From Coriobacteriales bacterium (lineage in GTDB: Bacteria > Actinomycetota > Coriobacteriia > Coriobacteriales > QAMH01), in NCBI GenBank assembly GCA_050943615.1, contig JBMNPN010000002.1, forward strand, positions 224-64,223: DNA of 64,000 nt. The letters run 5' to 3'. Under the pieces are notes generated by a model. It made no database searches and was not told the DNA's origin. It worked only from the letters and a program-made list of their open reading frames with translations. Below, in pieces: positions 5,417-43,929 of the stretch. The translations under genes were made by a program, and so were the position numbers. Each line of letters opens with the position of its first letter. The stretch's first letter is position 1.

Positions 5417-5425
5417 CCACCGGGG

Positions 5426-24612: not shown

Positions 24613-24719
24613 CCCGCGGAACCCGCGGCCCTCTCCCGCGGCCCCGGCGCCCGCGGAACCCGCGCCTCTCCCGCGACCCCGGCGCCCGCGGAACCCGCGC
24701 CTCTCCCGCGACCCCGGCC
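24613..24719. repeat. about 3 x 35-bp GC-rich tandem repeat
   Basis: CCCGCGGAACCCGCGCCTCTCCCGCGACCCCGGCG units at ~24613, 24650, 24685. Confidence 0.85.
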
Positions 24720-24737: not shown

Positions 24738-24986
24738 ATTAACCACATTTAGAATTTCAGGTTTCTTCGCGAACTGGGCAAACACGAAACCTGAATTTTA
24801 AATGTTGGTTAATTGTCGCCACCACCCCCAGTGGCAGCCCCATCCCTCGCGAACCGAGCGCGACCCCGGCGGTCTCCTGGAACCCGCGCTCCTCCCGCGC
24901 GGTTCCCGCAATTAACCGCATCTACAATTTCAGGTTCCTCCGCAACCTGGGAAAACGCGAAACCTGAAAATAAGATGCTGATTAAT
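24738..24986. repeat. family B 76-bp modules (24738-24813, 24911-24986)
   Basis: ATTAACC..AATTTCAGGTT / AAACCTGAA..G(G/A)TTAAT arms, directly upstream of the nuclease-like gene. Confidence 0.9.
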
Positions 24987-25031
24987 TTGGAGTATCGTGT
25001 GCTAGGGAGACGAGCGTGGAGAGGGGAAGCG

Positions 25032-26189
25032 ATGCAACTTGCGGTCAACAAGAACACAGCACTGTACCTGCTGCGCAGCATGCGTGCGAGGGGAGCATCC
25101 CCGCGCTACGCGCTCTCCCGTCGCTGCAATCTTCCCACTGCATCTCCTCACCCGCACAAACGGTGGAGCAAGAAGGGCCTGCGGGCATTCGTTCGCTCAA
25201 ACAAGTTAGCGTCGACTGCTCCGCTCGAGCAGGTCGACATCGCCGTTCCAAGCGGTGCTCCGCGCCTGTATCTGAGCATTGCCCGTTGCAGCACCTATGG
25301 CTCCGGACTTCCCAAGCGCTCGTTCGTCGATCTTGGTAGCGGCCTGTTCATGAGCAGCCCGGAGCTTCTGTTCGTGGAGCTTGCGCCAGAGCTGTCATTG
25401 CCGGAGCACCTGATGCTCGGCCTGGAACTTTGCGGCGGGTTCTCGCGCGACCCGGACAACCCGATCGAGGGCGACTGCACGTTCGACGTCCAGCCGGTGA
25501 CGTCGCGGGAGCGCATTTCAGCCTTTATAGAACGCTGCGGTAGGCTCAAGGGCGTCGGCCCCGCGCGGCGCACGCTTGCGCTGCTCGCCGATAACGCCTG
25601 GTCTCCCACGGAGGCTGCCGTGGCGGTCATGATCTCCCTGCCGCTCGAGGAGTACGGCTACGAACTCGGGCGCTGCGTTCTCAATCCCCGCTTTTCGACG
25701 CCCAAGCACCTGCAGCGTGCGGCGGTGCGGGAATCCCGCGTGCCCGACATCCTGATCGAGGGGACGTCTGTGGGCATCAACTACGATGGCGCCGTGCACT
25801 TCGACCTCGACTCGGTCGTCTCGGCGACGATGGCGCTGGACCGCGACCCCGGGAGCGCCGCCCTCAGCTGCGCGCTCACCGAGACCATGAACGCAGTGCG
25901 CGCCAAGCTCGTCGACGATATCCGCCGGAACCGAGAGCTCGCGGCCGACGGACTCACGGTGTTTCCCGTGGTCAAGGAGGACCTGTATGAGGAGGGTGGG
26001 CTCGACCGGGTCATGGCGCAAGTGGTCGCGGCGCTCGAGGCGCATGAGGGCGTCGAGCATCCCTTGCAGCGCGACGCGCTCGCCTCGGCGTTTGCCAGCA
26101 AGGAGCGCCAGGCACTCGTCCGCTCTCTCATTCCCGGGCCGGACAGGGAGCTCGACCCTTCATGCGTCGAGGCGTTCGTGGGATATTGA
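25032..26189 (+). CDS. AbiEi-like/DUF559(Vsr)-like putative endonuclease
   Basis: SSPELLF..LELCG, WSPTE..ISLP..YGY..LNPR, RVPD...NYDGAVH...DDIRRNREL..GLTVF; GAGGGG RBS; homolog of 38429-39472. Confidence 0.65.
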   Translation: MQLAVNKNTALYLLRSMRARGASPRYALSRRCNLPTASPHPHKRWSKKGLRAFVRSNKLASTAPLEQVDIAVPSGAPRLYLSIARCSTYGSGLPKRSFVDLGSGLFMSSPELLFVELAPELSLPEHLMLGLELCGGFSRDPDNPIEGDCTFDVQPVTSRERISAFIERCGRLKGVGPARRTLALLADNAWSPTEAAVAVMISLPLEEYGYELGRCVLNPRFSTPKHLQRAAVRESRVPDILIEGTSVGINYDGAVHFDLDSVVSATMALDRDPGSAALSCALTETMNAVRAKLVDDIRRNRELAADGLTVFPVVKEDLYEEGGLDRVMAQVVAALEAHEGVEHPLQRDALASAFASKERQALVRSLIPGPDRELDPSCVEAFVGY

Positions 26190-26197
26190 TTCGCAAT

Positions 26198-26273
26198 ATT
26201 AACCGCAATTAGAATTTCAGGTTTCTCTGCGACCTGCAGAAACGTGAAACCTGAAATTTGTTTGTTGGTTAAA
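26198..26273. repeat. family B 76-bp module
   Basis: ATTAACCGCAATTAGAATTTCAGGTTT...AAACCTGAAATTTGTTTGTTGGTTAAA, 8 bp after the nuclease-like gene stop. Confidence 0.9.
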
Positions 26274-26417
26274 TTGGCGGGCATGCGAAACACCCGCCGT
26301 CGGGGCATGCCACCATGCGCGCGGGCGGACTCGTGCTCGCACCCGTTCCTCTCGTGCCGCGGCCCTGCGCTAGAATCGCTGGTAGACATACATCCCCTGG
26401 GCAGGAGGCAGATACCC

Positions 26418-27419
26418 ATGAGCCAGTTTCTCGAGAACGTGATTGCGCGTGCCAAGGCGGACAGGCAGACGATCGTTTTGCCGGAAGGGACAGACGAGCG
26501 CACGGTGAAGGCGGCACGCGAGATTATGGACCGCGGCATCGCCGACATCATCATCTTGGGAAGCGAGGAAGAAATCGCCGCCCATGGCGTCGACGTCTCG
26601 GGAGCGACGCTCATCGACCCCGCGAGCTCCGACAAACTCGAGCCGTACGCGCAGAAGTTCGCCGAGCTGCGCGCCAAGAAGGGCGTCACGCTAGAGCAGG
26701 CGCGCGAGCAGATGCACGACGTGAGCTACTTTGGCGTCATGATGGTCTACATGGGCGATGCCGACGGCATGGTCTCGGGTGCCTGCCACTCCACTGCCGA
26801 CACGCTGCGCCCCGCGCTGCAGATCCTGAAGACCGCCCCCGGCACCAAGCTCGTGAGCTCGTCGTTCGTGATGGACGTGCCCGATTGCGAATACGGCGAC
26901 AACGGGCTTCTCGTCGTGGGGGACTGCGCGCTCAACATCTACCCGGATACCGAGGAGCTCGCCGAAATCGCGCTGGCTTGCGCCGAGACCTTCGAGAAGC
27001 TCTGCGGCGGCACGCCGCGCGTGGCGATGCTCTCGTACTCGAGCTACGGTTCGGGCAAGGGGGACTCGGTCGACAAGGTCGCCGAGGCCACGCGCATCGC
27101 CAAGGAGAAGGCCCCCGACCTGGCGCTCGATGGCGAGCTGCAGGCAGATGCCGCGCTCGTGCCGGAAGTCGGCGCGCTCAAGGCGCCCGATTCGCCCGTT
27201 GCGGGCAAGGCGAACGTGCTCATCTTCCCCAACATCGATGCGGGCAACATCGGCTATAAGCTGGTGCAGCGCTTGGGCAAGGCCGATGCCTTCGGGCCGG
27301 TCATGCAGGGCATGGCAAAGCCGGTCAACGACCTGTCCCGCGGCTGCTCGGCAAACGACATCGTCGGGACGGTCGCCATCACCTGCGTGCAATCCCAGGC
27401 TCGCAAGGACGCCCACTAG
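26418..27419 (+). CDS. pta: phosphate acetyltransferase
   Basis: IVLPEG.DER, DADGMVSGA.HSTADT, DGELQADAA, LIFPNIDAGNIGYK, SRGCS; AGGAGG RBS. Confidence 0.96.
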   Translation: MSQFLENVIARAKADRQTIVLPEGTDERTVKAAREIMDRGIADIIILGSEEEIAAHGVDVSGATLIDPASSDKLEPYAQKFAELRAKKGVTLEQAREQMHDVSYFGVMMVYMGDADGMVSGACHSTADTLRPALQILKTAPGTKLVSSSFVMDVPDCEYGDNGLLVVGDCALNIYPDTEELAEIALACAETFEKLCGGTPRVAMLSYSSYGSGKGDSVDKVAEATRIAKEKAPDLALDGELQADAALVPEVGALKAPDSPVAGKANVLIFPNIDAGNIGYKLVQRLGKADAFGPVMQGMAKPVNDLSRGCSANDIVGTVAITCVQSQARKDAH

Positions 27420-27567
27420 CCAGTCACGCGTGCACTGCATACCCTTTTCTTGTGCAAATATGGGCGCGCGTGCCCTGATGGCGCCATGACTGGCGTATCA
27501 TTCTTCAAGTTACGCACATCTCTTAGATGCGCATAGGCAATGCAAGCGTTCTTGGGAGTAGAGAACT

Positions 27568-28596: not shown

Positions 28597-28777
28597 GAGC
28601 AGTTTCATGTACCTCTACGGGAGAGAGCCGTAGCTGCCTCTTTCGGACGCGCATCTGCCGTCGAATAAGGCGGATGCGAAAAACACTGACCAATTCAGGC
28701 GAATGACGTCGCGCTTTGCGCATGCCCTTGCGCGTGCCGAGTGCGATTCTTGAGACGAGAAAGACAGAAACACCACC

Positions 28778-29857
28778 ATGTACGACAAACTGAAAAAGAT
28801 CATCGAAGCCTTTGAGGAGCTCGAGGCCAAGCTCGGCGACCCTGCGATTTTGGCCGACCAGAAAGAGTACACGCGCCTTGCAAAGGAACATGCGCGCCAG
28901 GGAGACCTCGTTGCCGCCGCGCGCAAGTACGTCTCGCTGTGCGACCAGCTCGAGTCTGCCAAAGAGGAGATCAAGATCGAGTCCGACCCCGATTTAAAGG
29001 AGCTCGCCCAGGAGGAGGTCACCGACATCGAGGAGCAGCTGCCCGCCCTGGAAGAGGACATCAAGTTCATGCTGCTTCCCCAGGATCCCAACGACGAGAA
29101 GGACATCATCGTCGAGATCCGCAGCGCGGCCGGCGGCGACGAGGCCGCCATCTTTGCAGGCGACCTGTTCAAGATGTACTCGCGCTATGCGGACAGCAAG
29201 AAGTGGAAGGTCGAGGTCATCGATTCCTCCCCGTCCGACCAGGGCGGGTTCTCCAAAATCGAGTTCAAGGTGCTTGGCGACAAGGTCTACAGCTCGATGA
29301 AGTTCGAGTCCGGCGTGCACCGCGTGCAGCGCGTCCCCAAGACCGAAAGCCAGGGGCGCATCCAGACCTCGACGGCGACGGTTGCCGTCATGCCCGAGGC
29401 AGACGAGGTCGAGGTGGAGATCAAGCCCGAGGACATCCGCATCGACGTGTTCCGCGCCGGCGGTCCCGGTGGGCAGTGCGTCAACACGACCGACTCTGCG
29501 GTGCGCATCACGCACCTGCCGACCGGCTTGGTCGTGCAGTCGCAGGACCAGAAGTCGCAGATCCAGAACCGCGAGGCGGCACTCCAGGTGCTGCGCGCGC
29601 GCCTGTACGACAAGATGCTGCAGGAGCAGCAGGAAGCGCAGGGAGCCGAGCGTCGCAAGCAGATCGGCGGCGGCAACCGTTCCGAGAAGATCCGCACCTA
29701 CAACCAGCCGCAGGACCGCGTGACCGACCACCGCATCGGCTACAACGGGACCTACTCGGGTATTCTCGAGGGCGATGGCCTGGGCGACCTTATCGAGAAC
29801 CTCGCGGCGGCGGACCGTGCCGCGCGCCTCGAGCAGGCGACGGGCGAAGCTGCCTAA
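28778..29857 (+). CDS. prfA: peptide chain release factor 1
   Basis: GGQ motif ([12 protein letters not shown]) and PxT motif ([10 protein letters not shown]); followed by prmC. Confidence 0.97.
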
Positions 29858-29858
29858 G

Positions 29859-30713
29859 ATGGGCGATACCTGGACGGTCGCGCGCACGCTCGACTGGTGC
29901 AAGGGCTACCTGGAACGCCACGACGACGAGCACCCGCGCCTGAGCGCCGAGATCCTGCTCGCCGCGGCAACGGGGCTTTCGCGCGTCGAGCTCTACGCCT
30001 ACTTCGATCGGCCGCTGAGTGCAGAGGAGCGCGCAACGCTGAGGGAGTCCCTCAAGCGCCGTGGTGCTGGAGAGCCGCTCCAGTACGTGACAGGGGATGC
30101 GGCGTTTCGGCATATCGTCGTGAAGACTGCCCGTGGCGTGCTCATTCCCCGCCCCGAAACGGAGAGTCTGGTCGAGCTCGTGCTCTCGGAATTCGCGGAG
30201 CATGATGGAGAGGTCCAGGCGCTCGAGGTCGGCTGCGGGACGGGCTGCATCGCCTGTTCCCTTGCAAAAGAAGCCGGCATGCACGTCACGGCGACTGACA
30301 TTTCGCCCGAAGCCCTCACGTGCGCCAAGGGAAACGTCGAGATGCTCGGCCTGACAGATAACGTCGACGTCGTCGAGGCCGATTGCGTCGAGGGCGTCGA
30401 GGGCCCCTTCGATGTGCTCGTGAGCAACCCGCCCTACATCCCGACGGCGGTGCTCTCGGAGCTTCCGCAGGAGGTCGTGGGCTTCGAGCCAAAACTTGCG
30501 CTCGACGGCGGAATAGACGGGCTCGTCTTCTTCGACCGCCTGGTCGCGGAGGCAGTTCCGCTGCTCACTTCCGGTGGCTTTTTTGCCTGCGAGCTTCACG
30601 AGGACTGCCTTGACGAGGCGGCTACCCGACTCGAGCGGGCGGGGCTTCATGACGTTGCCGTGCACGAGGATCTGACAGGCCGCTCGCGCTTTGTCACGGC
30701 CCATACCGCTTAA
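29859..30713 (+). CDS. prmC: release factor glutamine methyltransferase
   Basis: GEPLQYV, LIPRPETE, VGCGTG, SNPPY, LALDGG.DG. Confidence 0.95.
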   Translation: MGDTWTVARTLDWCKGYLERHDDEHPRLSAEILLAAATGLSRVELYAYFDRPLSAEERATLRESLKRRGAGEPLQYVTGDAAFRHIVVKTARGVLIPRPETESLVELVLSEFAEHDGEVQALEVGCGTGCIACSLAKEAGMHVTATDISPEALTCAKGNVEMLGLTDNVDVVEADCVEGVEGPFDVLVSNPPYIPTAVLSELPQEVVGFEPKLALDGGIDGLVFFDRLVAEAVPLLTSGGFFACELHEDCLDEAATRLERAGLHDVAVHEDLTGRSRFVTAHTA

Positions 30714-30813
30714 GCGCCCAAGCGCTTTCCTGCACGTTTCGGCAATGTGAATTTGAGGCAAATCTAGGAGATTGTCTCGGCTGCCCTTTCCTGTTCTCAG
30801 GTACGATAGCAGC

Positions 30814-32060: not shown

Positions 32061-32229
32061 GTTCTCGTTTCCTCTCTGCCTGCCTGTTTGATGTGAGCCG
32101 CCTGTATCGGGTGTTCTGCTCTAGTCTACACATATGTCAACGAAGCGGGCGGAAATTTTCCACTATGTGCAGAAGCTACCTGTGCTGTGCGGAATATACC
32201 CGCGCTGCCTCAGGTATCCCTGCCCAAAA

Positions 32230-32720
32230 AATCGCGCACACCTTCGCAGTAACGACCCAAAATCCTGCACGGCTCGAACCCGTGCGCGATTTTCCCGTAC
32301 TGTCGCTCGGGTCTGGAGCTGGCGAGCCGCTTTTTCTTCCAAAGCCTGCTGGGCTCCTCAAAGCGCTAGGCGAAAAATCGCGCACACCTTCGCAATGGAG
32401 TCCCAAAGAGGGCCGCAACGCGAACCCGTGCGCGATTTTCTCGTAGCGTAGTCTGGTTCTGGAGGCGGACGACGCGCTCCTTCCTACTGTCTGCTGGAAT
32501 TTTCAAGGCAGCAGGAATAATCGCGCATACCTTCGCAATAAAGACCCAAGGGGGCCTGCAACGCGAACTTATGCGCGATTTTTCGTTTCTACTCGGATCT
32601 GGAGCCGGCGAGCTGTTTTCTCTCCCAGGTCTGCTGGACTCCTCAAGCCGGCAGGAGAAATCGCGCACAGGTTCGCATTTTTTGCGAATAGGGGCCTGAA
32701 ATTCGAGCCCATGCGCGATT
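32230..32720. repeat. family A 62-bp palindromic modules, cluster 1 (32230, 32376, 32519, 32659)
   Basis: AATCGCGCA...TGCGCGATT, each unit 62 bp. Confidence 0.92.
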
Positions 32721-33025
32721 TCTTATTGGTGACCGTTGACTATGGGATCTCACTAGCGCTTGGCTTGCTCGTTTGCTGAGGCGGCATTCTTGGCACTACG
32801 GGTGTTGTCCAATACAGCAGAAAATCTAAGTCTATATATATAAAGTTATATAGTGTCACATGAATGAAACTATTTGCCATCTAACGGTTAAGTTTGCGAT
32901 ACCCTACTGCCACCGAAATCCTCCTATCATTGCAGATGTCGAAAGGGAATTGAGGTTAGCAAGACAGACCGCAAAGCCCCTTCCGCACAAAGGAAACAAG
33001 CTTCGAGTGGAAGGAAGTAATAAAA

Positions 33026-33460
33026 ATGGCATCTGAAATTATTGGCTACAACCCGTTCCGCGCAATCGACGAGTTCGAGAAGAGGATGTTCCGCGAGCCG
33101 TTCGCTCCGTTCTATTCTTCGAGCACCGCTGGCATCTTCAAGACCGACATCAAGGAAGACGACGGCAAGTTCGTCCTCGAGGCAGACCTGCCCGGCTTCA
33201 AGAAGGAAGACATCAACCTCGATGTCGACAACGACATCCTCACGATCTCTGCGGAACGTCATTCCGAGCATGAGGACAAGGACAAGGCCGGCAATTACAT
33301 CCGTTGCGAGCGTTCGTACGGCTCCTACAGCCGCAGCTTCGATGTAAGCGCTGTCGATATTGACTCCATCTCCGCCAAGTACGAGGACGGCGTGCTGACC
33401 GTGGATATGCCCAAGAAGGAAGAGCTTATCCCGAAGAAGCAGCACCTCGAGATTCAGTAG
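33026..33460 (+). CDS. Hsp20/alpha-crystallin small heat shock protein
   Basis: TDIKE...LEADLPGFKKEDI, ERSYGSYSRSF, AKYEDGVLTV..PK. Confidence 0.95.
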   Translation: MASEIIGYNPFRAIDEFEKRMFREPFAPFYSSSTAGIFKTDIKEDDGKFVLEADLPGFKKEDINLDVDNDILTISAERHSEHEDKDKAGNYIRCERSYGSYSRSFDVSAVDIDSISAKYEDGVLTVDMPKKEELIPKKQHLEIQ

Positions 33461-33583
33461 ACTCTCCAACGCCCTGGGCTGCGCCCCCCTCTAGAGCTCA
33501 GAGCGTATCCATTTCCTCCTTTTGGGGCCGGGGCGCAAGTAACTTCTGAGCCTCGGCCCCGCCTCTCTCTTTTCTCTCATTGC

Positions 33584-33624
33584 CGAAAGGGCCCGTCTCG
33601 TTGAATGCGAGGCGGGCCCTTTCG
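33584..33624 (+). terminator. strong hairpin after hsp20
   Basis: CGAAAGGGCCCGTCTCG / CGAGGCGGGCCCTTTCG 17-bp stem. Confidence 0.7.
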
Positions 33625-33692
33625 TATGCGTGCGGATTGGGGTGGAGCGCACGTGCGGCAAACGGGAGCGCGTCTAAGATTCATGCCGAGAA

Positions 33693-33884
33693 AATCGCGC
33701 ACGGGTTGCACCTAGTGGCGAATCTATGGGCATTTGCGAAGGGCGTGCGCGATTTTCATGTGCGGGGATGCGTGGCTTTCCAGCGCTGCTCTATTGTCTC
33801 GGGAAGCTCACAACCGCACAAAAATCGCGCAGGGGTTGCTCGTGGTGGCGAATCTGTGAGCGTCCGCGAAGGGCGTGCGCGATT
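33693..33884. repeat. family A cluster 2 (33693, 33823)
   Basis: Two 62-bp units with a shared core (GTGGCGAATCT). Confidence 0.92.
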
Positions 33885-33931
33885 TTCGTGCACAGGGTGG
33901 ACGCGTTGCGCAGCCTGCTACAATGCGTCCC

Positions 33932-34810
33932 ATGGAAACGAGAAGAAACGCCCTGCTGCTGTTCAGCAAGGTTCCCGAACCAGGCAAAGTGAAGACGCGG
34001 CTCACCTCGCTCAAAGACGGGTTCTTTGACCCGGAGGTTGCGAGCGCCCTTTATCACTGCATGCTCTTTGACGTTGTCGAGTGCTGCTGCGACGCCCTGC
34101 GCGACCTCGAGCGCGCCGATCTCGAGCGGGCGGCACTAGAGGGAACTTGCGAGGAAATGCCCGTTCACGATGAGTACACACTCCTCATTTCTGCTCCCGG
34201 CAAGGCGGGTGAAGATGGGATGCGCAAGCTGTTCGAGGAGAGCGGCGCGTGGCCGCGCGAGATTATCTTTACCCACGACGATGGCAAGAGCTTCGATGAG
34301 CACTACAACGACGCGTTCCAGCAGGTCTGGGACCGCGGTTTCGACACGGTACTCTCCATGGGCTGCGATATGCCCGCGCTGCGGCGTAGCGTCGTCATCG
34401 AGGGGTTCGAGCGCCTGCATGCGCTTTGCGAACGAGAGGGCGGCGGCATCGTGCTCGCCCCTGACCAGGAGATGGGCGTGAGCATCGTCGGCTGGACGGC
34501 GGAGACGGACTTCGATCACGATGGCATCTTCTATAACCAAGATGGGCTCACCGTTCTCCCGGCATATATCCAGAAAGCCGACCGACTTGGGCTGCCCGCG
34601 CTCTATTTGCCTGATGTCCCCGATGTTGACACGATTGCGGACCTTAACCACAACGTCACACTCGTCCAAGCGCTCGAGTACTGCGCCAAGTTCCAAGACG
34701 ATATCACGCCGCCCTATCGTACGGCACAGGCGCTGCGCGAGATGGGATACACGGACATTCGCGTCATGCCGAACGACCTGCATGACGATCGAGACGAAAT
34801 CGACCGCTGA
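33932..34810 (+). CDS. DUF2064 / CofC-like GT-A-fold protein
   Basis: LLLFSKVPEPGKVKTRL, MGCD.P, VLAPD..G, PDVDT..DL; TACAAT 7 nt before ATG 33932 suggests a leaderless mRNA. Confidence 0.75.
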   Translation: METRRNALLLFSKVPEPGKVKTRLTSLKDGFFDPEVASALYHCMLFDVVECCCDALRDLERADLERAALEGTCEEMPVHDEYTLLISAPGKAGEDGMRKLFEESGAWPREIIFTHDDGKSFDEHYNDAFQQVWDRGFDTVLSMGCDMPALRRSVVIEGFERLHALCEREGGGIVLAPDQEMGVSIVGWTAETDFDHDGIFYNQDGLTVLPAYIQKADRLGLPALYLPDVPDVDTIADLNHNVTLVQALEYCAKFQDDITPPYRTAQALREMGYTDIRVMPNDLHDDRDEIDR

Positions 34811-34973
34811 GCTCGCACTGATGCGGCGCGTATGATGTTTCTCTTGCAGGAGGCTGTACTAGCTATCACCTGCCTTTATCTCGGTTTTCTCGCAAAGCCG
34901 TTGTATGGAGAGCGTATTGAAAAAACGCATCTGCAACCTGCGGAATTAGGACTACTATTGTCTTCACAAAACC

Positions 34974-35010
34974 TTGACATTTTGATGGGAACTAATAATA
35001 ATTCTCATTA
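34974..35010 (+). promoter_or_regulatory. cydAB promoter with overlapping Fur-family-like box
   Basis: TTGACA (34974-34979), 17 bp, AATAAT; imperfect palindrome TAATAATAATTCTCATTA (34993-35010). Confidence 0.6.
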
Positions 35011-35115
35011 ACTTCAACCGCTACCTGAGAGCAAGGGGCTCTCGTCAAGGTTCGCAAGATTGGCACAGGCGCTCTTGCGAGAGGCAACGGGGTTTCAACG
35101 TGAAGGGGAGGACAT

Positions 35116-36552
35116 ATGGATTTATTTTCCGATCCGGTGTTTCTCGGCCGTCTTCAGTTTGCGATCACGGTCATTTTCCATTTCCTGTACGTTCCACTGT
35201 CCGTCGGTTTGGGCCTGATCGTTGCCATTGCGCAGACGCGCGCGCACAAGACGAAAGACCCCAAGGACGAGGCAACCGCGCGCTTCTGGATTCGCGTCTT
35301 TGCGCTCACGTTCACCGTGGGCGTTGCGACGGGCATCACGATGGAGTTCAGCTTCGGCACGAACTGGGCTGACTATTCCCGCTTCGTCGGCGACATCTTC
35401 GGCTCGCCGCTTGCGGCAGAGGCGCTGTTCGCCTTCTTCCTCGAGTCGACGTTTCTGGGCGTCCTCATCTTTGGGCGCGACAGGATCTCGACGAAGTTCC
35501 GCATGGTGTCCGCTTGGCTGGTCTGGGCAGGCTCGATGCTGTCGGCCCTGTGGATCCTGATTGCCAATTCCTGGATGCAGACGCCCGCGGGCTACACCGT
35601 CGAGCAGACCACCAATGGTGCAAAGGCCGTCATGACCGACTTCTTCCAGGCCGCATTCAACCCCGAGACGATTCCCACGTACCTGCATACGGTGCTCGCG
35701 CTCATCATTCTTGGCGCATTCGTCGCGATGGCCGTTGCGGCCTATTATCACCTGCATAACCGCAATGAGCACTTCGTCAAGAACGTACTGCGCTGGGGCG
35801 CTATCGTCGCGACCGTTGCAGGCGTGCTGATGATGCCGGCTGCGCACATGCAGGCAAAGGTCGTCTCGGACTACCAGCCGACCAAGCTCGCCGCGATGGA
35901 AGGCCATTACGAGACCGAGTCGGTGCCCATGTACCTCTTCGGCTGGGTCGATACGGATTCCCAGGAAGTCCAGGGCATCTCGATCGAGGGCCTGACCTCG
36001 TGGCTCATCACGGGGGATCCCAGCTCGGTATATCCGGGGCTCAACGACCTCGAGGAGCAGAAACCGGGCAGCACGCCTGACTCCGCAATGGTCCAGGCGA
36101 CGTTCCAGAGCTACCACATCATGATCGTCATGATGGGTGTCATCGTGATCGGCATCATACTTGCGCTCGTGCTCTCGTTCCGCAAGAAGAAGAGCACGCA
36201 CAAGTGGCCCTGGGTGCTGCTGATGATTCTGTGGATAGCGCCGCTGCTCGCCATCGAGACCGGCTGGCTCACCGCAGAGTTCGGCCGGCAGCCGTGGATC
36301 GTCTACGGACTGCTCAAGACCTCTGATGCCATCAGTCAGGCCGTGCCCGCCTGGCAGCTGCTCGTGACGATCGTCCTGTTCGTCGTTGTCTATCTGCTCA
36401 TCATCATCACGTGGATCCGCCTCTTTGCCAAGTTCGTCAAAGAGGGGCCCGAGAAATACGAGACGGCGCTCGTGCAGGGCTCGCAAGATGAGGACGGTGC
36501 GCAGGATGCTCCCGTTGCACGCCTCGCCGCTGAGGGAAAGGCAGGTGAGTGA
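35116..36552 (+). CDS. cydA: cytochrome bd oxidase subunit I
   Basis: RLQFA...HFLYVP, GITMEF.FGTNW, ANSWMQTP, QPTKLAAMEG, GWLTAEFGRQPW. Confidence 0.97.
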   Translation: MDLFSDPVFLGRLQFAITVIFHFLYVPLSVGLGLIVAIAQTRAHKTKDPKDEATARFWIRVFALTFTVGVATGITMEFSFGTNWADYSRFVGDIFGSPLAAEALFAFFLESTFLGVLIFGRDRISTKFRMVSAWLVWAGSMLSALWILIANSWMQTPAGYTVEQTTNGAKAVMTDFFQAAFNPETIPTYLHTVLALIILGAFVAMAVAAYYHLHNRNEHFVKNVLRWGAIVATVAGVLMMPAAHMQAKVVSDYQPTKLAAMEGHYETESVPMYLFGWVDTDSQEVQGISIEGLTSWLITGDPSSVYPGLNDLEEQKPGSTPDSAMVQATFQSYHIMIVMMGVIVIGIILALVLSFRKKKSTHKWPWVLLMILWIAPLLAIETGWLTAEFGRQPWIVYGLLKTSDAISQAVPAWQLLVTIVLFVVVYLLIIITWIRLFAKFVKEGPEKYETALVQGSQDEDGAQDAPVARLAAEGKAGE

Positions 36553-37559
36553 TCATGACATTGCAGATTCTTTGGTACCTGCTTATCGCTCTGCTGATCA
36601 TTGGCTACTACGTGCTTGACGGGTTCGACCTGGGCGCAGGCGTCCTGAGCCCCTTCATCGCAAAGACCGAGCCCGAGAAAAAGGCGGTCGTCGAATCGCT
36701 GGGGCCGGTCTGGGATGGCAATGAGGTATGGTTGCTCACGGCCGGCGGCGCGCTGTTCGCGGCCTTCGCGCCGGCGTACGCCACGACGTTTTCCGGGTTC
36801 TACCTCGCCATCCTGCTGGTCTTGTTCGGGCTGATCGTCCGTGCGGTCTCTCTCGAGTTCCGCAGCAACGACGAGGACTGGAGAAAGCTCTGGGACGCGC
36901 TGTTCTTCCTGGGCTCGCTCGTCCCCGCGCTGCTGTTCGGCGTCGCGCTCGGCAACTGCCTGCAGGGCATCCCGCTTGCCATGAACGGGGACTACACGGG
37001 CACCTTCCTCGGGCTGCTCACGCTGTTTCCCCTGGTGTGCGGCCTGCTCGGCCTGTCCACCATCATCACGCAGGGCGCATGCTGGCTTGCCGCCAAGATT
37101 GAGGAGGGCACCGAGCTTCAGGCGCGCGCTGTCCAGGTGAGAAAGGTCATGTTCATCGTGACGATCGTTCTCGCTTGCCTTGCCGCGGCGCTCTACTTTG
37201 GGGGAATCCACACCGCGTTCCAGGGCTTTGCAGGCGGCGTCACCGTCATCGGCGCGATTTTGCTCGTCGCGGGCTTTGTCTGCGGTCTGTTCTTCGGGGC
37301 AAAGGGCAAAGATTGGCTCGCGTTCCTCTCGAACTGCGTGGTCTGCGCGGCGTTCGTCATCCTGTACGCGGCGGCGCTGTTCCCGAACTTCGTGGTCTCC
37401 ACGGGCGTCGGTCCCAACATCGATATCGCCAACGCTGCAGGCAGCGACCTCACGCTGACCGTGATGACGATCATCGCCTGCATCGGCGTGCCGCTGGTGC
37501 TCATCTACCACGTGATCGTGTACCGCACCTTCCGCGGAAAGGTCCCGGTCGAGTCCTAG
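36549..37559 (+). CDS. cydB: cytochrome bd oxidase subunit II
   Basis: LDGFDLGAG, GPVWDGNEVWL, FAAF...YAT.FSG; GTGA overlap (ATG 36555 is an alternative start). Confidence 0.96.
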   Translation: MIMTLQILWYLLIALLIIGYYVLDGFDLGAGVLSPFIAKTEPEKKAVVESLGPVWDGNEVWLLTAGGALFAAFAPAYATTFSGFYLAILLVLFGLIVRAVSLEFRSNDEDWRKLWDALFFLGSLVPALLFGVALGNCLQGIPLAMNGDYTGTFLGLLTLFPLVCGLLGLSTIITQGACWLAAKIEEGTELQARAVQVRKVMFIVTIVLACLAAALYFGGIHTAFQGFAGGVTVIGAILLVAGFVCGLFFGAKGKDWLAFLSNCVVCAAFVILYAAALFPNFVVSTGVGPNIDIANAAGSDLTLTVMTIIACIGVPLVLIYHVIVYRTFRGKVPVES

Positions 37560-37694
37560 AGGCTTTCGGACAGATATCGATCGAATGGAGAGCCATGTCG
37601 GTAATTTAGCCGGCGTGGCTCTCTTGCGCTGCAGAACTGCTGGTGTCTAATGAGCCTTGCCCAAGGGTTTGTGCCGCATGAGCCTTGCCCAAGA

Positions 37695-38161
37695 AATCGC
37701 GCATAACTTCGCAAAATGCTGCAAGAGCGGCTCTTTCGCGAAGGGCATGCGCGATTTTGCTTCTGCCGCAGCTCGCTGGACACGTTCAGCAATTGGGTAG
37801 CATCTCAGGCGCTGGACGAGAAAATCGCGCACAGGTTCGCAAAATACTGCAATAGCCGATTTCTTGCGTAGGTTGTGCGCGATTCTGAGTTGCCAGATCT
37901 TCTTGGGGCGCGCTCGGTGGTTGGCGTGGTCGATTGGCCTCCTGGATGTGCTTTGGGAGGAAATTGCGCATTCCTTCGCAGAATGCTGCCGAAGCGGGCT
38001 CCTCGTGAAAGGTGTGCGCGATTCGGAATTGCCAGATTTTGCTTGGACATATTCGGTGTCTGGCCCATCCTCGAGCATCAGGATGAGCACTCAAGGAAAA
38101 ATCGCGCATAGGTTCGCATGATGCTGCTGAACCGACTCTCTCACGAAGGGTATGCGCGATT
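37695..38161. repeat. family A cluster 3 (37695, 37823, 37962, 38100)
   Basis: Four 62-bp units upstream of the nuclease-like gene. Confidence 0.92.
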
Positions 38162-38428
38162 TCTGCCTTCTTGGGAACTTGCATGTCTCTAGGGTGCGCG
38201 GTGAGGGCGAAGAAAAAATTTTACATTTTTTCTCGCGGACAGCACCTCTTTGACCTGCGGTGTTCTGATAGAGCTCTGAGATATTGTTAGATTCACTCGG
38301 AAATGAGTCTGATGTTTTGAAAGGTCAGGAGTGTACAGTGCAACTGGGGCTGAGTCCGGGCCTTTCCTTTCGGGATGGGGGAGGCGAAATAGGATGTGGG
38401 ACACCTGAGATAGGGGTGGAGCGGAAGA

Positions 38429-39472
38429 ATGGGGAGAGGAACGAGGTCTGGGTCTTTCCGCGGCGCTTTTCTCGTGGTGACGGGGGCGAGCGCCGCGGAG
38501 CTAGACCGGATGCTTTCAGAGAAGGGAAGGCGCCTGGGCGACCTTCCGAGAATCAGGAACTCTGAGCAGGTGCTCGCCGAGGCAGGAGCGGTGCACTTTA
38601 AGCGCGCGGAAGAGATTCTCGAGCGAAGCGTGCTCGGCCGCCGATTATCGCGGCCGGTCCAGGTTCTGGTGAAAGAGCCTTCCGACAGGAGAAAGAACCG
38701 TGTTCTGAGAGGGCATTGCTGGTCTTCCGGCCTTCCCGAGAAATCGCTGGTCTTTGTCGCGCCCGGGTTGTATGCGTGCGCTCCTGAGTTCTCGTACCTT
38801 CAGGAATCCCGTCGCCTCTCGATCCCCCTATCCTCGCTTTTCGGCATGGAAATCGTGGGGAGCTTCGTGCGCGACGGGGCATCAGAATACGGGTGCCGCA
38901 CTGCGCAACCTGCAACGGATATCGAGGCGGTCCGGAACTTCGTGAGAAAGGCCAGCGGAAAGCCGGGTGCACGAAAGGCCCGCATGGCGCTTCGCTTTGT
39001 GCTCGAGGGGTCGCGTTCGCCCCAGGAAAGTAAATGTGCGCTTTTGCTCTCGCTTCCCAAGCGCTACGGCGGATTCGGGTTGCCGAAGCCGCTCCTCAAC
39101 CCACGTATCGAGACGAACCCCGAGTATCAGCAAACGGGCTTGAGCGAGCCGCGGTACTGCGATATCTACTATCCGCGCGGCAGACTCGACATCGAGTACA
39201 ACGGAGCACAGCACGAGCAGGGCGCCGCACCGATTCACGATCTTGAACGGGAGCGGGCGCTTTTCCGCGTGGGGATTACCGTTGTCTCGCTCACGGCGGC
39301 AGCGCTCGCGAACCGCTTCGAGATGACGCGTCTTGCCCGGGGAATTGAGCGCAAACTCGGGTGCAGGACGCAAGAAGATTCGTCTCTGACTATAGAGATG
39401 CGCAAGCTGCTCTTCGATGCCTTCTTCCCTCCGCGGGAGCAAGGCTGCCCTTGGTTTTCCGAGGCTGCATGA
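38429..39472 (+). CDS. AbiEi-like/DUF559(Vsr)-like putative endonuclease
   Basis: SRSPQES..LSLP.RYGGFG...LNPRI, YCDIYY...DIEYNGAQH....DLERERAL..GITV is a Vsr/DUF559-type catalytic arrangement. Confidence 0.7.
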   Translation: MGRGTRSGSFRGAFLVVTGASAAELDRMLSEKGRRLGDLPRIRNSEQVLAEAGAVHFKRAEEILERSVLGRRLSRPVQVLVKEPSDRRKNRVLRGHCWSSGLPEKSLVFVAPGLYACAPEFSYLQESRRLSIPLSSLFGMEIVGSFVRDGASEYGCRTAQPATDIEAVRNFVRKASGKPGARKARMALRFVLEGSRSPQESKCALLLSLPKRYGGFGLPKPLLNPRIETNPEYQQTGLSEPRYCDIYYPRGRLDIEYNGAQHEQGAAPIHDLERERALFRVGITVVSLTAAALANRFEMTRLARGIERKLGCRTQEDSSLTIEMRKLLFDAFFPPREQGCPWFSEAA

Positions 39473-39807
39473 GACGGTGACGATGCCAGAGGGCTGTGCG
39501 GTTTTGTGCTGAAGCCGACAGCATTCACTTGAAGGGAAACGGCTTCGGCTCATGCACCGCTTATTGCACATATGGGGAACTGACGCGCTGCGCGAGACCC
39601 ATGACACCAACACCAGCGCGAGGCCGTTGCTCTCAACATCTCAGGTTGAGAGGCGCGCTGCGTGATACTCATGAGTGTATTTTCCCAATATGAGGCTTGA
39701 GCTGTGTCTTTCTCGCGCTGTGTGCCCGATGCCCTTTGCTATGATTCAAATTGGCTGATTTACCGACTGTCCATTTGCGTATGGAACAAGAAAGGTTGGG
39801 AACTTCC

Positions 39808-40245
39808 ATGAGCACGATAACCAAGGGCGAGCGCGAGATCATCGACGTCCTCGCTCTGCATGATGGTATCCCAGCAGCCGAAATCGAGAAGGACCTGCAA
39901 GCTCCCGAGATGCAGGGCTATCACAAGGCCGTCCGCGCCATGGTCGATGCGGGATTCCGCAAGGCTTGGGAGGACAATGCCGAAAAGGTCGTCGAGAACA
40001 GCGACGACGTGATTGCCCTCGAAGAGGGTCTTGCCAAGCACAGCAACTTCACGGTGGAGTTCATCAAGGACGTCACCGCCGAAGGCGAGGGAGAGGGCAA
40101 GCAAAACGTCTTCTTCCAGCAGGTCAAGGGCTATGAGCGTGCTTGCCAGGCGGCTTCCAATGCGGGCTTTCGCGCCGCATGGGTCGACGACCGCATGCAG
40201 CCGGTTGGCAACAACCACGGCTGGATTGCGCGCAACGACCTGTAG
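39808..40245 (+). CDS. hypothetical protein with internal duplication
   Basis: Typical high-GC codon usage; QGYHKAVRAMVDAGFRKAWED resembles KGYERACQAASNAGFRAAWVD; followed by a terminator. Confidence 0.7.
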   Translation: MSTITKGEREIIDVLALHDGIPAAEIEKDLQAPEMQGYHKAVRAMVDAGFRKAWEDNAEKVVENSDDVIALEEGLAKHSNFTVEFIKDVTAEGEGEGKQNVFFQQVKGYERACQAASNAGFRAAWVDDRMQPVGNNHGWIARNDL

Positions 40246-40303
40246 GAGCTTTGCCAGATAGGCACTCGTTGCCGGATCGATTTCCCGAGCAGTTGGTAAA
40301 CGG

Positions 40304-40345
40304 GAGGCGGGTCATTCCCCAAAGGGGAGTGGCCCGTTTCTTTTT
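40304..40345 (+). terminator. intrinsic terminator
   Basis: GAGGCGGGTCATTCCCC-AAA-GGGGAGTGGCCCGTTTC followed by a T run. Confidence 0.75.
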
Positions 40346-40355
40346 GCGCGGTAAA

Positions 40356-40812
40356 AATCGCGCATAGGTTCGCCTAGGGGACAAATATGAGCTCGCCATG
40401 CGAAGGCGTGCGCGATTTTGCTCGCGAGCTATAAATGACCCTGCGGCACGAAGCATGTTTGTCGAAGAATCGCGCATAGGTTCGCCTGAGGTACAGAAGT
40501 AAATTCGCCATGCGAAGGCGTGCGCGATTTTCATGTGCGCTGAGTCGCGAGCCAGTACCACTTGGGGGCGTGCTCGGTTCTGGGCCTTGGCATATGGCTG
40601 CCAAGAATCGCGCATGGGTTCGCCTGATTGCACATGATGTGTGGTTGTTGCGAAGGCGTGCGCGGTTTTCTTGCGCGTTGCGGTGCGCGGCGGGTTGCTC
40701 GGGCGCGTCCGCTTTCTCGTGAGCTATCCTGGCGCGTGCGATTGCCGAAGAATCGCGCACGCCCTAGGCGTGCGGGGCAATCGGCAGCTGCCATGCGAAG
40801 GTATGTGCGATT
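40356..40812. repeat. family A cluster 4 (40356, 40468, 40606, 40751; degenerate unit ~40682)
   Basis: 62-bp units sharing TGCGAAGG right arms, upstream of leuS. Confidence 0.9.
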
Positions 40813-40951
40813 CCCTTGGCGCCTGTGTCGTTGCAGCTGACGCTTTACGTGGTCCCGAGCGGCGGTAAACTGCGCTATCATCGTGCAATGCCACATATGG
40901 CTGCAAATGGGCAGTCAGTTGGTCGTTTCACACCTATCGGAGGTACGCGTT

Positions 40952-43465
40952 ATGCCGCAAGGCTACAACCCGCAAGAAATCGAGCCCAAATGGCAAAAGA
41001 TCTGGGCTGACGAGAAGCTCTTCAAGCTGGACCCCGCAAGCAAGCGTCCGGCAAAGTACGTGCTCGAGATGTTCCCGTACCCTTCGGGCGACATCCACAT
41101 GGGGCACGTCCGCAACTACACGATCGGCGACGTCTACGCGCGCTATCTGCACATGAAGGGCTGCGACGTGCTGCACCCGATTGGCTGGGACGCCTTCGGG
41201 CTGCCGGCCGAGAACGCTGCCATCAAGCACAAGAGCCATCCGGCGAAGTGGACCTTTGGGAATATCGACACGCAGTGCGCGAGCTTCAAGCGCATGGGGC
41301 TTTCCTACGACTGGGACTGTACGGTCATCACCTGTAAGGAAGACTACTACCGCTGGGGCCAGTGGTTCTTCCTGAAGATGTACGAAAAAGGGCTCGCATA
41401 CCGCAAGAGCAACCCGGTCAACTGGTGCCCGAGCTGCAAGACCGTCCTTGCCAACGAGCAGGTCGAGCAGGGGCTGTGCTGGCGCTGCCACAGCGTCGTC
41501 GAGCGCAAGGAACTCGACCAGTGGTACCTCAAGATCACCGACTACGCTGAAGAGCTGCTCGACGACCTGGACAAGCTGCCGGGCTGGCCCGAGCGCGTCA
41601 AGCAGATGCAGGCCAATTGGATCGGCCGCTCCGAGGGCGCGCACGTCGACTTCACGCTCTGCGATGAGGCAGGTGAGCCGACCGACACCAAGATCACCGT
41701 CTTCACGACACGCCCCGACACGCTCTTCGGCTGCACGTTCTTCCTGCTCGCGCCCGAGCACCCGATGGTGAACGAGCTCATCTCCGGCACCGAGTACGAG
41801 CAGGCGTGCCGCGAGGTCATCGCGATTGCCGAAAAGGCGACCGCCGTCGAGCGGACCATGGGCGACCGCGAAAAGCACGGCGCCTTCACCGGGCGCTACG
41901 TGGTGAACCCGGTCAACAACGAGAAAGTGCCGGTCTGGATTGCCGACTACGTGCTCACCGACTACGGCACGGGCGCCGTCATGGCCGTGCCGAGCGGCGA
42001 CCAGCGCGACTTCGAGTTCGCGAAGAAGTACGGCCTGAGCATTCCGCCGGTCGTCGTGCCCGAAGACGATGCGCTCTTTGAGCGACTGAAGGACGAGAAG
42101 ACGCGCGTCGTCGACAACGTGGATTGGCCCGAGGCCTACGATGGCCCTGGCACTATGGTGCAGTCCGGCGAGTTCACGGGCATGCAGGGCGGCAAGGACT
42201 CCGAGGGCGCGAAGGCCGTCATCTCGTGGCTCGAAAAGAAGGGCTGCGGCGAGGGCACCGTCAACTTCCGCCTGCGCGACTGGCTCATCAGCCGTCAGCG
42301 CTACTGGGGCAACCCGATTCCGATGATCTACTGCGACAAGTGCGGCATCGTTCCGGTCCCCGAAGAGGACCTGCCGGTCGTGCTCCCGCAGGACGTCGAT
42401 ATCGCCGCAGGCGAGACGCTCAAGGACAACAAGGACTTCTACGAGTGCACGTGTCCCAAATGCGGCGGTCCCGCGCATCGCGAGACCGACACGATGGACA
42501 CCTTCACCTGCTCGTCGTGGTACTTCATGCGCTACACCGACCCACATAACAGCACTGCGCCGTTCGATTCCGACAAGGTCAACCGCTTCATGCCCGTCGA
42601 CCAGTACATCGGCGGCATCGAGCACGCGATCCTGCACCTGCTCTACGCCCGATTCTGGACGAAGGTCGCCCGCGACCTCGGCATGGTCGACTTCGACGAG
42701 CCGTTCACCAACCTGCTGTGCCAGGGCATGGTGAAAGACGAGCACGGCGAGACCATGAGCAAGTCCAAGGGAAACGTCGTCTCGCCCGAAGACGTGATCG
42801 CGAAGTACGGCGTCGACGCGGCGCGCGCCTACATCCTGTTCATGGCACCGCCTGACAAGGACCTGCAGTGGGACGACCGCGGCTGCGCGGCCATGGAGAA
42901 GTTCCTGCGGCGTGTCTGGGGCCAGGTCTGGACGTTGTCCGATGAGGGTGGAACCGGCGCGGGCGGCGACAAGGCCGCCGAGAACCTGAACCGCAAGCTC
43001 CACCAGACGATCAAGAAGGTCACCGAGGACATCGAGCGCTTCAACTTCAACACGGCGCTTGCCGCGATCATGGAGCTTGCCAACGCGACTGCCGACTACC
43101 TGAAGCTCGACGCCTCCAAGCGCGACAGCGCGCTGTGCAAGCAGGTCGCCGAGACGCTCGTGCTCCTGCTCGCGCCCTACGCACCGCACTGGGCAGACGA
43201 GCTGTGGACGGCAGCACTCGGCCATGAGAAGAGTGCCTATTGCGAAGACTGGCCGCAGTATGACGAGGCACAGGCCGCAGAAGACGAGGTCGAGCGTGCC
43301 GTCATGATCGGCGGCAAGGTGCGCGCGCACATAATCACGGCAGCCGATGCTCCCGAGGACGAGATTGTCGAGGCGGCGCTTGCCGCAGTTGCCGACCGGC
43401 TCGAGGGCAAGACCGTGAGAAAGACGATCGTTGCGCCGACGGTCGTGAACGTGGTGGCCAACTAA
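40952..43465 (+). CDS. leuS: leucyl-tRNA synthetase
   Basis: MFPYPSG..HMGH (HIGH), GWDAFGLPAENAA, RDWLISRQRYWG, TMSKS; GGAGG RBS. Confidence 0.98.
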   Translation: MPQGYNPQEIEPKWQKIWADEKLFKLDPASKRPAKYVLEMFPYPSGDIHMGHVRNYTIGDVYARYLHMKGCDVLHPIGWDAFGLPAENAAIKHKSHPAKWTFGNIDTQCASFKRMGLSYDWDCTVITCKEDYYRWGQWFFLKMYEKGLAYRKSNPVNWCPSCKTVLANEQVEQGLCWRCHSVVERKELDQWYLKITDYAEELLDDLDKLPGWPERVKQMQANWIGRSEGAHVDFTLCDEAGEPTDTKITVFTTRPDTLFGCTFFLLAPEHPMVNELISGTEYEQACREVIAIAEKATAVERTMGDREKHGAFTGRYVVNPVNNEKVPVWIADYVLTDYGTGAVMAVPSGDQRDFEFAKKYGLSIPPVVVPEDDALFERLKDEKTRVVDNVDWPEAYDGPGTMVQSGEFTGMQGGKDSEGAKAVISWLEKKGCGEGTVNFRLRDWLISRQRYWGNPIPMIYCDKCGIVPVPEEDLPVVLPQDVDIAAGETLKDNKDFYECTCPKCGGPAHRETDTMDTFTCSSWYFMRYTDPHNSTAPFDSDKVNRFMPVDQYIGGIEHAILHLLYARFWTKVARDLGMVDFDEPFTNLLCQGMVKDEHGETMSKSKGNVVSPEDVIAKYGVDAARAYILFMAPPDKDLQWDDRGCAAMEKFLRRVWGQVWTLSDEGGTGAGGDKAAENLNRKLHQTIKKVTEDIERFNFNTALAAIMELANATADYLKLDASKRDSALCKQVAETLVLLLAPYAPHWADELWTAALGHEKSAYCEDWPQYDEAQAAEDEVERAVMIGGKVRAHIITAADAPEDEIVEAALAAVADRLEGKTVRKTIVAPTVVNVVAN

Positions 43466-43495
43466 GCGCATATCTTCGCAAAGAGCCAGTAACGC

Positions 43496-43533
43496 AAAAC
43501 GCTCGCCCCGGAGAAATCCGATGCGGGCGTTTT
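43496..43533 (+). terminator. probable leuS terminator
   Basis: AAAACGCTCGC...GCGGGCGTTTT stem. Confidence 0.5.
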
Positions 43534-43547
43534 ATTGCTGCGAGAAA

Positions 43548-43825
43548 AATCGCGCACGGGTTCGCAAAACGGCTGGATTGGCGTGAGAACCGCCAGGGCA
43601 TGCGCGATTCCGGGGGGCGCTCGGGGATGCGGGCGTCGCAGGCGCCGCGGCAGAAAATCGCGCACGGGTTCGCAAAACGGCTGGATTTGCGTGAGAACCG
43701 CCAGGGCGTGCGCGATTCCGGGGGGCGCTCGGGGATGCGTGCGCCGCGGCAGTCGCAGCAGAAAATCGCGCACGGGTTCGCGGAATGCTCGAGCGCGCGT
43801 GAAGGCCGGCAGGGCATGCGCGAAT
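43548..43825. repeat. family A cluster 5 (43548, 43656, 43764)
   Basis: Three 62-bp units at exact 108-bp period; the first two are nearly identical. Confidence 0.93.
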
Positions 43826-43929
43826 CCTGCATCCAGACGCAAGAAGGGCACCCGCCTCCGAACGAAGCGGGTGCCCTTCAGGGTCCTGTGCTCGCGCTAT
43901 GGCTTGAGTGCGAGGTCAGGGAGTTCCCG

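Follow-up and report, generated by a model that had tools for sequence, protein, structure and literature searches.

Palindromic modules that bracket, and co-diverge with, the genes of a large protein family in Coriobacteriia

Introduction

REP-associated tyrosine transposases (RAYTs) are accompanied by doublets of repetitive extragenic palindromic (REP) sequences, known as REPINs, which are high-copy, genome-wide repeats (PMC3116915, PMC5581495). Single REP units are 20-40 bp long and carry a GTAG or CGTC tag (PMC3733652). Here we analyse a stretch of 64,000 nt from a Coriobacteriales bacterium (GCA_050943615.1, contig JBMNPN010000002.1, forward strand; hereafter the window, in whose numbering positions are given), which holds two homologous genes, gene 1 and gene 2, together with two families of palindromic modules, family B around gene 1 and family A around gene 2. 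An initial annotation of this DNA had proposed that both genes encode nucleases of the DUF559/Vsr type, proteins with a PD-(D/E)xK-like fold, and that genes and repeats form a system analogous to RAYT/REPIN. To our knowledge, a lifestyle of gene plus cognate palindrome is so far known only from RAYT/REPIN, which uses HUH chemistry on single-stranded DNA.

The system described here resembles RAYT/REPIN in several respects: one gene has its own palindromic repeats on either side, repeat units are long hairpins (roughly 60-110 nt), each paralogue has one repeat family, the gene is vertically inherited and housekeeping-like rather than insertion-sequence-like, and repeats are also found clustered and without a gene. 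Unlike RAYTs, the proteins have no HUH/Y1 transposase domain but instead a putative DUF559/Vsr-like C-terminal domain, which may act on the repeats. The modules differ from REP sequences in that they lack the GTAG/CGTC tag and end in (A/T)TAAC...GTTA(A/T) or AAAATCGCGCAC...GTGCGCGATTTT, and from REP/REPIN populations in that those dispersed in the sampled DNA are few and the host taxon is Coriobacteriia. Like the initial annotation, which knew of no characterised example, we found in the literature no description of this family, or of DUF559 or Vsr proteins with cognate flanking repeats. A gene with cognate palindromic repeats is a known kind of system, and there is a real chance that the mechanism here is new.

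Results and discussion

Modules bracket the genes across the family

Gene 1 and gene 2 are homologous, with 31% identity over 189 aa (BLASTP, E=3e-25), and the motifs by which they had originally been recognised as relatives are invariant or nearly so in an alignment of 20 family members. Gene 2, a paralogue, lacks the insertion that gene 1 has in its C-terminal domain, and carries EYNG in place of the NYDG of gene 1. Family B has five 75-bp copies in the window, starting at 6064, 6259, 24738, 24911 and 26198. These features are as follows.

Gene 1: 25032-26189, plus strand, open reading frame (ORF) with translation, 385 aa
Gene 2: 38429-39472, plus strand, ORF with translation, 347 aa
Family B distal upstream module: 24738-24812, plus strand, 75-bp palindrome with loop motif AACTGGGCAAA; DNA fold z=-6.4; covariance-model score 61.5 bits
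Family B proximal upstream module: 24911-24985, plus strand; DNA fold z=-3.9; covariance-model score 58.5 bits
Family B downstream module: 26198-26272, plus strand; DNA fold z=-7.4; covariance-model score 50.7 bits
Family B doublet without a gene: 6064-6333, minus strand, units at 6064-6138 and 6259-6333; minus-strand covariance-model matches of 50.7 and 52.5 bits

A gap of 46 bp separates the proximal upstream module from the ATG of gene 1, and the downstream module begins 8 bp past the stop codon of the gene. The doublet, whose loop motif is on the minus strand, is located downstream of the rRNA operon. Both the bracketing of gene 1 and the gene-less doublet had been claimed by the initial annotation and were found in the same places. 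GC-rich short tandem repeats adjoin B modules at 24594-24710 (three copies of ~36 bp) and 6130-6239 (two copies of 55 bp), and comparable GC-rich repeats precede a module in another locus, L036.

The family to which the two genes belong is large. A profile built from 20 sequences matched 3,911 representatives at 50% clustering (E<=1e-3), 1,170 of them at E<=1e-30, and a word-indexed search with gene 1 returned 288 homologues. We retrieved 79 genome loci, the titles of which, bar a few generic or apparently mis-binned ones, name Coriobacteriia or its families, including Eggerthellaceae, Atopobiaceae, Coriobacteriaceae, Olsenella, Hugonella and Thermophilibacter. One distant member (25% identity) is encoded on a 900-kb Collinsella aerofaciens replicon filed as a plasmid (NZ_OY725717.1; locus L227); a 249-bp inverted repeat with 42-nt arms (4967-5215 of that locus) begins 13 bp past its stop codon, and no upstream partner was seen.

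Comparison of the 450 bp upstream with the 450 bp downstream of each homologue revealed a repeat common to both flanks in 61 of 75 loci, versus 56 of 209 shifted controls, at a lax threshold. Under strict criteria, 52 loci carried 106 gene-adjacent copies, versus 6 copies in the remaining ~740 kb. A covariance model trained on 31 modules was then run over 1.29 Mb of locus sequence, with "beside the gene" defined as up to 500 bp upstream and up to 800 bp downstream. Of its 108 matches 100 were beside a gene and 8 elsewhere. Among the 64 loci that had not contributed to training, 66 of 68 matches fell beside the gene, in 8% of the sequence, a density ratio of ~370; the repeats are therefore strongly enriched near these genes, as the initial annotation had supposed. 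Median distances are 60 bp from the end of the upstream module to the start codon and 26 bp from the stop to the downstream module, which often overlaps a TAA stop. Gene-1-type loci have one module per side. The association between gene and module is real and conserved across the family.

The modules are palindromes maintained at the DNA level

Across loci, the modules have arms of 13-30 nt, loops of 30-40 nt and a typical length of 67-99 bp (median ~78 bp). The commonest plan, which includes family B, consists of (A/T)TAAC, a variable arm, a loop with the motif A(A/C)CTG(C/G)G conserved at a fixed position, the complementary arm and GTTA(A/T), with A/T-rich ends flanking GC-rich stems. Some 12 further loci have flanking palindromes with other arm types, and locus P0183, nearer the gene-1 type, has abutting TTAAYACAC...GTGTRTTAA modules on both sides. 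The motif of the downstream module is almost always on the sense strand of the gene and the upstream module is usually inverted, so that the commonest arrangement is a terminal inverted repeat of ~80 bp; all four combinations of orientation were found.

Nine modules from the window, folded as single-stranded DNA, form structures well beyond those of shuffled sequences (z from -2.1 to -7.4), and for eight of the nine none of 200 shuffles folded as well. The outer stem of 14 bp is 88.9% paired, versus 26-49% when the partner strand is slid, and 12 of its 14 pairs show compensatory changes on both sides. G:T accounts for 11 of the 59 non-Watson-Crick cells in the outer stem and is no commoner than other mismatches; in family A stems, T:G and C:A mismatches are equally common. 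The lack of G:T enrichment argues that the constraint acts on DNA rather than on RNA.

This speaks to a reading at the RNA level, akin to a type III toxin-antitoxin system, in which transcribed modules would neutralise, or be processed by, a RAP-like PD-(D/E)xK ribonuclease. Such a system could account for the tandem repeats directly upstream of gene-2-type genes, and RAP-domain RNA-binding proteins of the mitoribosome are among the best structural matches of the protein (see below). However, besides the missing wobble-pair enrichment, upstream modules are found in either orientation, modules are also located downstream and at a distance, and neither PADLOC nor Rfam returned a match, all of which makes it quite improbable. 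No module matched Rfam 15 at the gathering score, the only matches in the window being rRNAs, and the single match at E<=1 was a spurious miRNA hairpin on one B module. A scan for terminators and promoters did not call the modules canonical terminators and found nothing beyond a weak 5-bp sub-hairpin in the arms of family A. A CRISPR array was also considered and ruled out, as the conserved ends are inverted, not direct, and the units are diverged tandem duplicates; no cas domains were found among the neighbouring proteins of the window.

Similarity in shape also invites comparison with integrons. The modules resemble attC sites and clusters of attC sites lacking integron integrases (CALINs) in size (60-140 bp), in being imperfect palindromes, in their ...AAC and GTT... 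ends and variable centres, and in an asymmetry that sets orientation; they sometimes form arrays. They could thus be taken for attC sites and the genes for cassettes. Unlike in integrons, however, it is always the same gene family that is enclosed, the two sites match each other and are homogenised, site orientation varies, the arrays hold no cassettes or ORFs, and there is no integrase among the neighbouring ORFs of the window. We regard this possibility as largely refuted.

Family A and tandem arrays at gene-2-type loci

The window is ordinary chromosome. Its gene order is rRNA operon, BspA-type surface protein, ABC ATPase, gene 1, pta, GT2 glycosyltransferase, prfA, prmC, two unnamed genes, hsp20, a DUF2064 gene, cydAB, gene 2, a 164-aa ORF, leuS and a convergent molybdopterin oxidoreductase. 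Family A comprises exactly 17 full modules, in which AATCGCGCA and TGCGCGATT start 53 bp apart; in addition to its conserved ends (AAAATCGCGCAC...GTGCGCGATTTT), it has a conserved asymmetric internal loop that orients each copy. The modules form five intergenic clusters at 32227-43827, with gene 2 in the middle.

Cluster 1: 32227-32722, mixed strands, four modules at 32230, 32376, 32519 and 32659, three of them minus
Cluster 2: 33690-33886, plus strand, two modules between hsp20 and the DUF2064 gene
Cluster 3: 37692-38163, unstranded, four modules between cydB and gene 2
Cluster 4: 40353-40814, plus strand, four modules between the 164-aa ORF and leuS
Cluster 5: 43545-43827, plus strand, three modules in a 108-bp tandem unit between leuS and the convergent molybdopterin oxidoreductase

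Cluster 1 occupies the divergent intergenic region ahead of hsp20, and the last module of cluster 3 ends 266 bp before the ATG of gene 2. Both the number of modules and their confinement to 11.6 kb around gene 2 agree with the initial annotation; under uniform placement, the probability that five points all fall inside some 11.6-kb span of 64 kb is 0.0046. Family A has spread locally. Isolated 9-mer "half sites" of the family elsewhere in the window are all within genes and look like chance matches. The ends of family A (AAAATCGCGCAC) are similar to the TAACGCGCAC ends of some gene-1-type modules. No family A modules were found in the other homologue loci, and the matches listed for the metagenome pattern AATCGCGCAN{42,46}TGCGCGATT, from samples other than those with this species, were chance single matches in unrelated environments. 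In L088, a conspecific contig from a different sample, cluster 5 has two units versus three in the window, and this one 108-bp unit is the sole structural difference found within the species.

Tandem palindromic arrays were present beside the gene in all four gene-2-type loci examined. In the window, gene 2 is preceded by four units, and four more are located beyond the next ORF; P0002 has ~11 units, each of 84 bp, around GGTATGCGCGCGCATACC; P0246 has ~3 units upstream and ~6 downstream, of 146 bp each; and P0228 has at least two upstream and at least four downstream, at a spacing of 104-116 bp. The periods at these loci are 84, 104-116, 108-146 and 146 bp, and the core sequence differs at each. 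In L224 (813-1394 and 2516-3244) and L223 (1254-1865), the tandem palindromic arrays are overlain by ORF calls on the opposite strand, probably spurious proteins generated by the repeats.

Arrays of this kind, found at gene-2-type loci only, recall ToxIN-type toxin-antitoxin loci and sopC-type arrays, where tandem structured or palindromic units adjoin the gene of a protein that may act on them. They differ from both in that units flank the gene on either side, can have either orientation and are also located at a distance, in that complementarity is kept at the DNA level, and in that the protein is unrelated to ToxN and ParB. The protein could nonetheless be a non-catalytic, architectural or partition-like DNA-binding protein for which the arrays serve as a binding platform, like iterons or the sopC centromere repeats. 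The regularity of the arrays beside gene-2-type genes would suit this role, as would an acidic residue pair that is incomplete in both subtypes (see below) and the chromosomal, vertically inherited nature of the family. It would leave unexplained, however, why D239, H256, D296 and R299 are invariant across the family and why gene-1-type loci have a single module per side, and no ParA-like partner was present in the loci seen. We consider an architectural role distinctly unlikely.

Concerted evolution of the modules and co-divergence with the protein

Loci with similar proteins have common flanking genes on both sides. One syntenic locus is occupied in nine Atopobiaceae genomes, in which the family proteins are ~50% identical and their neighbours 66-91% identical. 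That a locus is shared at such protein divergence marks the genes as residents rather than jumpers. The gene is under purifying selection (dN/dS, the ratio of nonsynonymous to synonymous substitution rates, of 0.07-0.26). At the nine-genome locus, the upstream and downstream modules of a genome are 91-99% identical to each other in eight genomes and 73% in the ninth, and the non-motif loop bases of the two copies are likewise 91-99% identical. Between species, where proteins are ~50% identical, module identity is at most 0.69 or the modules cannot be aligned. No trace of upstream versus downstream position remains between species, which is classic concerted evolution, and the divergence of the modules tracks that of the protein. 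The modules themselves are under selection too, since those of L033 and L039 are identical despite a synonymous divergence (dS) of 0.17. Several genomes hold 2-4 paralogues, and the modules of such same-genome paralogues (36-65% identical) are no more alike than those of random pairs. Two expectations of the initial annotation are thus borne out, namely one repeat family per paralogue and co-variation of the flanking repeat with protein phylogeny.

These findings bear on the possibility that module, gene and module together form an autonomous transposon resembling an insertion sequence, with hairpin ends and with solo modules as its miniature inverted-repeat transposable elements. The commonest orientation does provide terminal inverted repeats of ~80 bp, several genomes carry more than one paralogue, many homologues are on very short contigs, and two relatives that are syntenic with the window from pta through GT2 and prfA to prmC have no gene 1 upstream of pta. 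However, occupation of the same locus in nine genomes by copies that are only ~50% identical is not expected of such an element; same-genome paralogues are at most 65% identical, hence there are no recent copies; no target-site duplications were detected; and no relatives were found on viral contigs or true plasmids. A transposon of this type is highly improbable.

In one of the two relatives, L218 (Pta 82% identical), the syntenic stretch extends through hsp20 and the DUF2064 gene. Family A modules are absent from the pta-to-DUF2064 stretch of the relatives, which covers the positions of clusters 1 and 2 only. At 11153-11265 of L218, in the hsp20/DUF2064 interval that corresponds to cluster 2, there is a 113-nt palindrome with 22-nt arms of unrelated sequence. 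Upstream of pta (3783-5891), L218 carries two genes with the defence-type nuclease domain GmrSD_N, where the window has the ABC ATPase and gene 1, which marks this junction as a variable spot. In L017 (LeuS 84% identical), synteny is too rearranged for an empty-site comparison. Here, a gene-1-type homologue is located directly past leuS (7316-11188), preceded by a 64-bp TTAGCTCGCG...CGCGAGTTAA palindrome; the window has, at the matching position, no gene but three family A modules.

The main rival explanation is that the modules are cis-regulatory: the upstream copy would serve as an operator or read-through insulator and the downstream copy as a terminator, and the protein, by binding them, would autoregulate a potentially toxic nuclease and keep it under tight control, without any copying of modules. 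Homogenisation would then stem from ordinary recombination, and arrays and solo copies from slippage and recombination. The short distances of the modules from the ORF, the almost invariant orientation of the downstream module relative to the gene, and the A/T-rich ends around GC-rich stems, as in bidirectional terminators, all suit this explanation. So do the synteny of the gene, the purifying selection on it, and the gain or loss of one tandem unit as the sole change within the species. A regulatory role does not, however, explain the near-identity of non-motif loop bases between the two copies, the modules located 3-19 kb from a gene without a nearby paralogue, or the presence of 17 family A modules across five intergenic regions, including one between divergent genes; nor do loops of 30-40 nt resemble those of intrinsic terminators. 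On balance we find it unlikely, while regarding it as a serious contender.

A putative DUF559/Vsr-like domain

Neither gene 1 nor gene 2 was assigned to any family in Pfam or NCBIfam, and the family had no HUH/Y1 (IS200/IS605-type) transposase match in these databases. PADLOC and PHROGs gave no usable match, and sequence searches of the PDB returned noise only. In the 20-member alignment, the motifs SP.E, LNPR, PD...(N/E)Y(D/N)G..H and D..R.R.L..G..V are invariant or nearly so, and D239, Y251, G253, H256, D296, R299 and R301 (gene 1 numbering) are invariant. The gene 1 product combines an unassigned N-terminal region of ~200 aa with a putative DUF559/Vsr-like domain at the C terminus, into which a helical stretch of ~30 aa is inserted. 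The full-length AlphaFold2 model has a predicted local distance difference test score (pLDDT) of 83.7, and a whole-chain Foldseek search gave no significant structural match. For the C-terminal domain modelled in isolation (pLDDT 78), the top Foldseek matches were PvuRts1I, RAP-domain proteins, the Vsr-like homing endonuclease I-Bth0305I, the DUF559 structure 3hrl and Vsr, with 3r3p and 1vsr also among the top structures; all top matches are of the restriction-endonuclease-like fold class. Alignment of profiles with hhalign against the DUF559 protein YcjD of E. coli gave E=0.0039 with the three core motifs in register, at a probability of 8.5%, and against Vsr E=0.39.

The protein thus shares with DUF559/YcjD the core motifs D ... 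(E/N)x(D/N)G..H ... D..R..L..G..V, in register, and differs from DUF559 and Vsr proteins in scoring below the Pfam cut-off, in its additional N-terminal ~200 aa and, in the gene-1 type, in the ~30-aa insertion. Evidence for the fold is weak yet consistent, and makes it plausible that the C-terminal domain adopts a DUF559/Vsr-like PD-(D/E)xK fold. This is to be understood as remote homology, not as membership of a curated family: the assignment made by the initial annotation finds support in the YcjD alignment and the Foldseek fold class, and none in the Pfam score.

A proposed system of resident gene and cognate sites

We tentatively favour, at somewhat less than even chances, a system of resident gene and cognate sites, in which the DUF559/Vsr-like protein recognises its own modules and cleavage drives their copying. 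We infer, accordingly with this model, that the protein binds the modules and is catalytically active. Recognition would probably depend on the variable arms, the TAAC...GTTA ends and the conserved A(A/C)CTG(C/G)G loop, with the module probably extruded as a hairpin or cruciform. The protein would then nick or cut the module, and repair would template one module from another, which would keep the two flanking copies alike. Occasionally, templated repair would give rise to tandem arrays and to new copies in nearby intergenic regions. Such a system would follow the logic of RAYT/REPIN, with an enzyme of unrelated fold and a far smaller set of repeats. In a bolder version, which we hold to be possible though rather doubtful, Vsr/DUF559-fold nucleases may be the resident engine of hairpins that replicate within genomes, a second class of such replicators with an evolutionary origin of its own. 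They would cut the cognate extruded palindrome and drive gene conversion, tandem amplification and short-range spread of the module, with protein and module co-evolving in specificity over genus-level time.

Several findings weigh against the favoured model. With respect to the protein, gene 2 matches Pfam DUF559 (PF04480) at E=0.18 and 12.1 bits, below the cut-off of 20.6, and only one of 20 family members has such a sub-threshold match. The Foldseek matches of the C-terminal domain are remote (E 0.02-0.6, TM scores 0.35-0.59). Instead of the canonical E.D pair of DUF559, gene-1-type proteins have N.D and gene-2-type proteins E.N; this incompleteness in both subtypes means that catalysis may be altered or lost. 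With respect to the modules, ordinary recombination between repeats 1.2 kb apart could produce concerted evolution without the protein, and fixed positions just outside the ORF also suit a regulatory role. Solo modules 3-19 kb from a gene without a nearby paralogue are present but few, and in most genomes the modules of the sampled sequence are essentially the two copies that bracket the gene. No target-site duplications were found, flanking k-mer identity being equal to that of the control, and no pair of filled and empty sites was found at nucleotide resolution.

The small share of covariance-model matches away from a gene (8 of 108) also indicates that the sampled sequence holds no large dispersed, REPIN-like population. 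Together with the absence of target-site duplications, the synteny and the purifying selection, the scarcity of solo copies means that the analogy with RAYT/REPIN drawn by the initial annotation is only partly supported: it holds for the bracketing, the paralogue-specific modules and the co-divergence with the protein, and does not extend to mobilisation, to target-site duplications or, in the sampled sequence, to a large dispersed population.

Other features of the window

The rRNA operon (16S, 23S and 5S; 510-5416) is complete, and the family B doublet begins ~650 bp past the 5S gene. The BspA-type leucine-rich-repeat surface protein (18789-23576) is 1,595 aa long and its gene has internal 69-72-bp repeats; a second gene, at the end of the window (63760-63990), has this repeat at 88% identity. 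The 164-aa ORF between gene 2 and family A cluster 4 (39751-40245) has no Pfam match; metagenome annotations call a gene of 145 aa here, and none of the other gene-2-type homologues was seen to have it as a neighbour. Compared with the window (29080-29954 and 23361-23499), contigs L083 and L088 of the same species (sample 3300053716) have clustered 1-3-bp indels that fragment prfA and prmC, which looks like assembly or sequencing error, not biology.

Significance

Should the modules prove regulatory, two 80-bp palindromes that evolve in such tight concert on either side of a gene would still make an unusual, unexplained pattern. The co-diverging pairs of protein and module form a natural series of matched specificities, with ~50 distinct arm sequences in hand, that could be used to study, and perhaps re-target, the recognition of DNA by structure plus sequence. 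Action of the protein on its modules, if real, would represent a second, mechanistically independent origin of the gene-plus-cognate-palindrome lifestyle. It would also provide a concrete substrate for DUF559-type domains, and a function for several thousand unnamed proteins of gut, rumen and oral Coriobacteriia.

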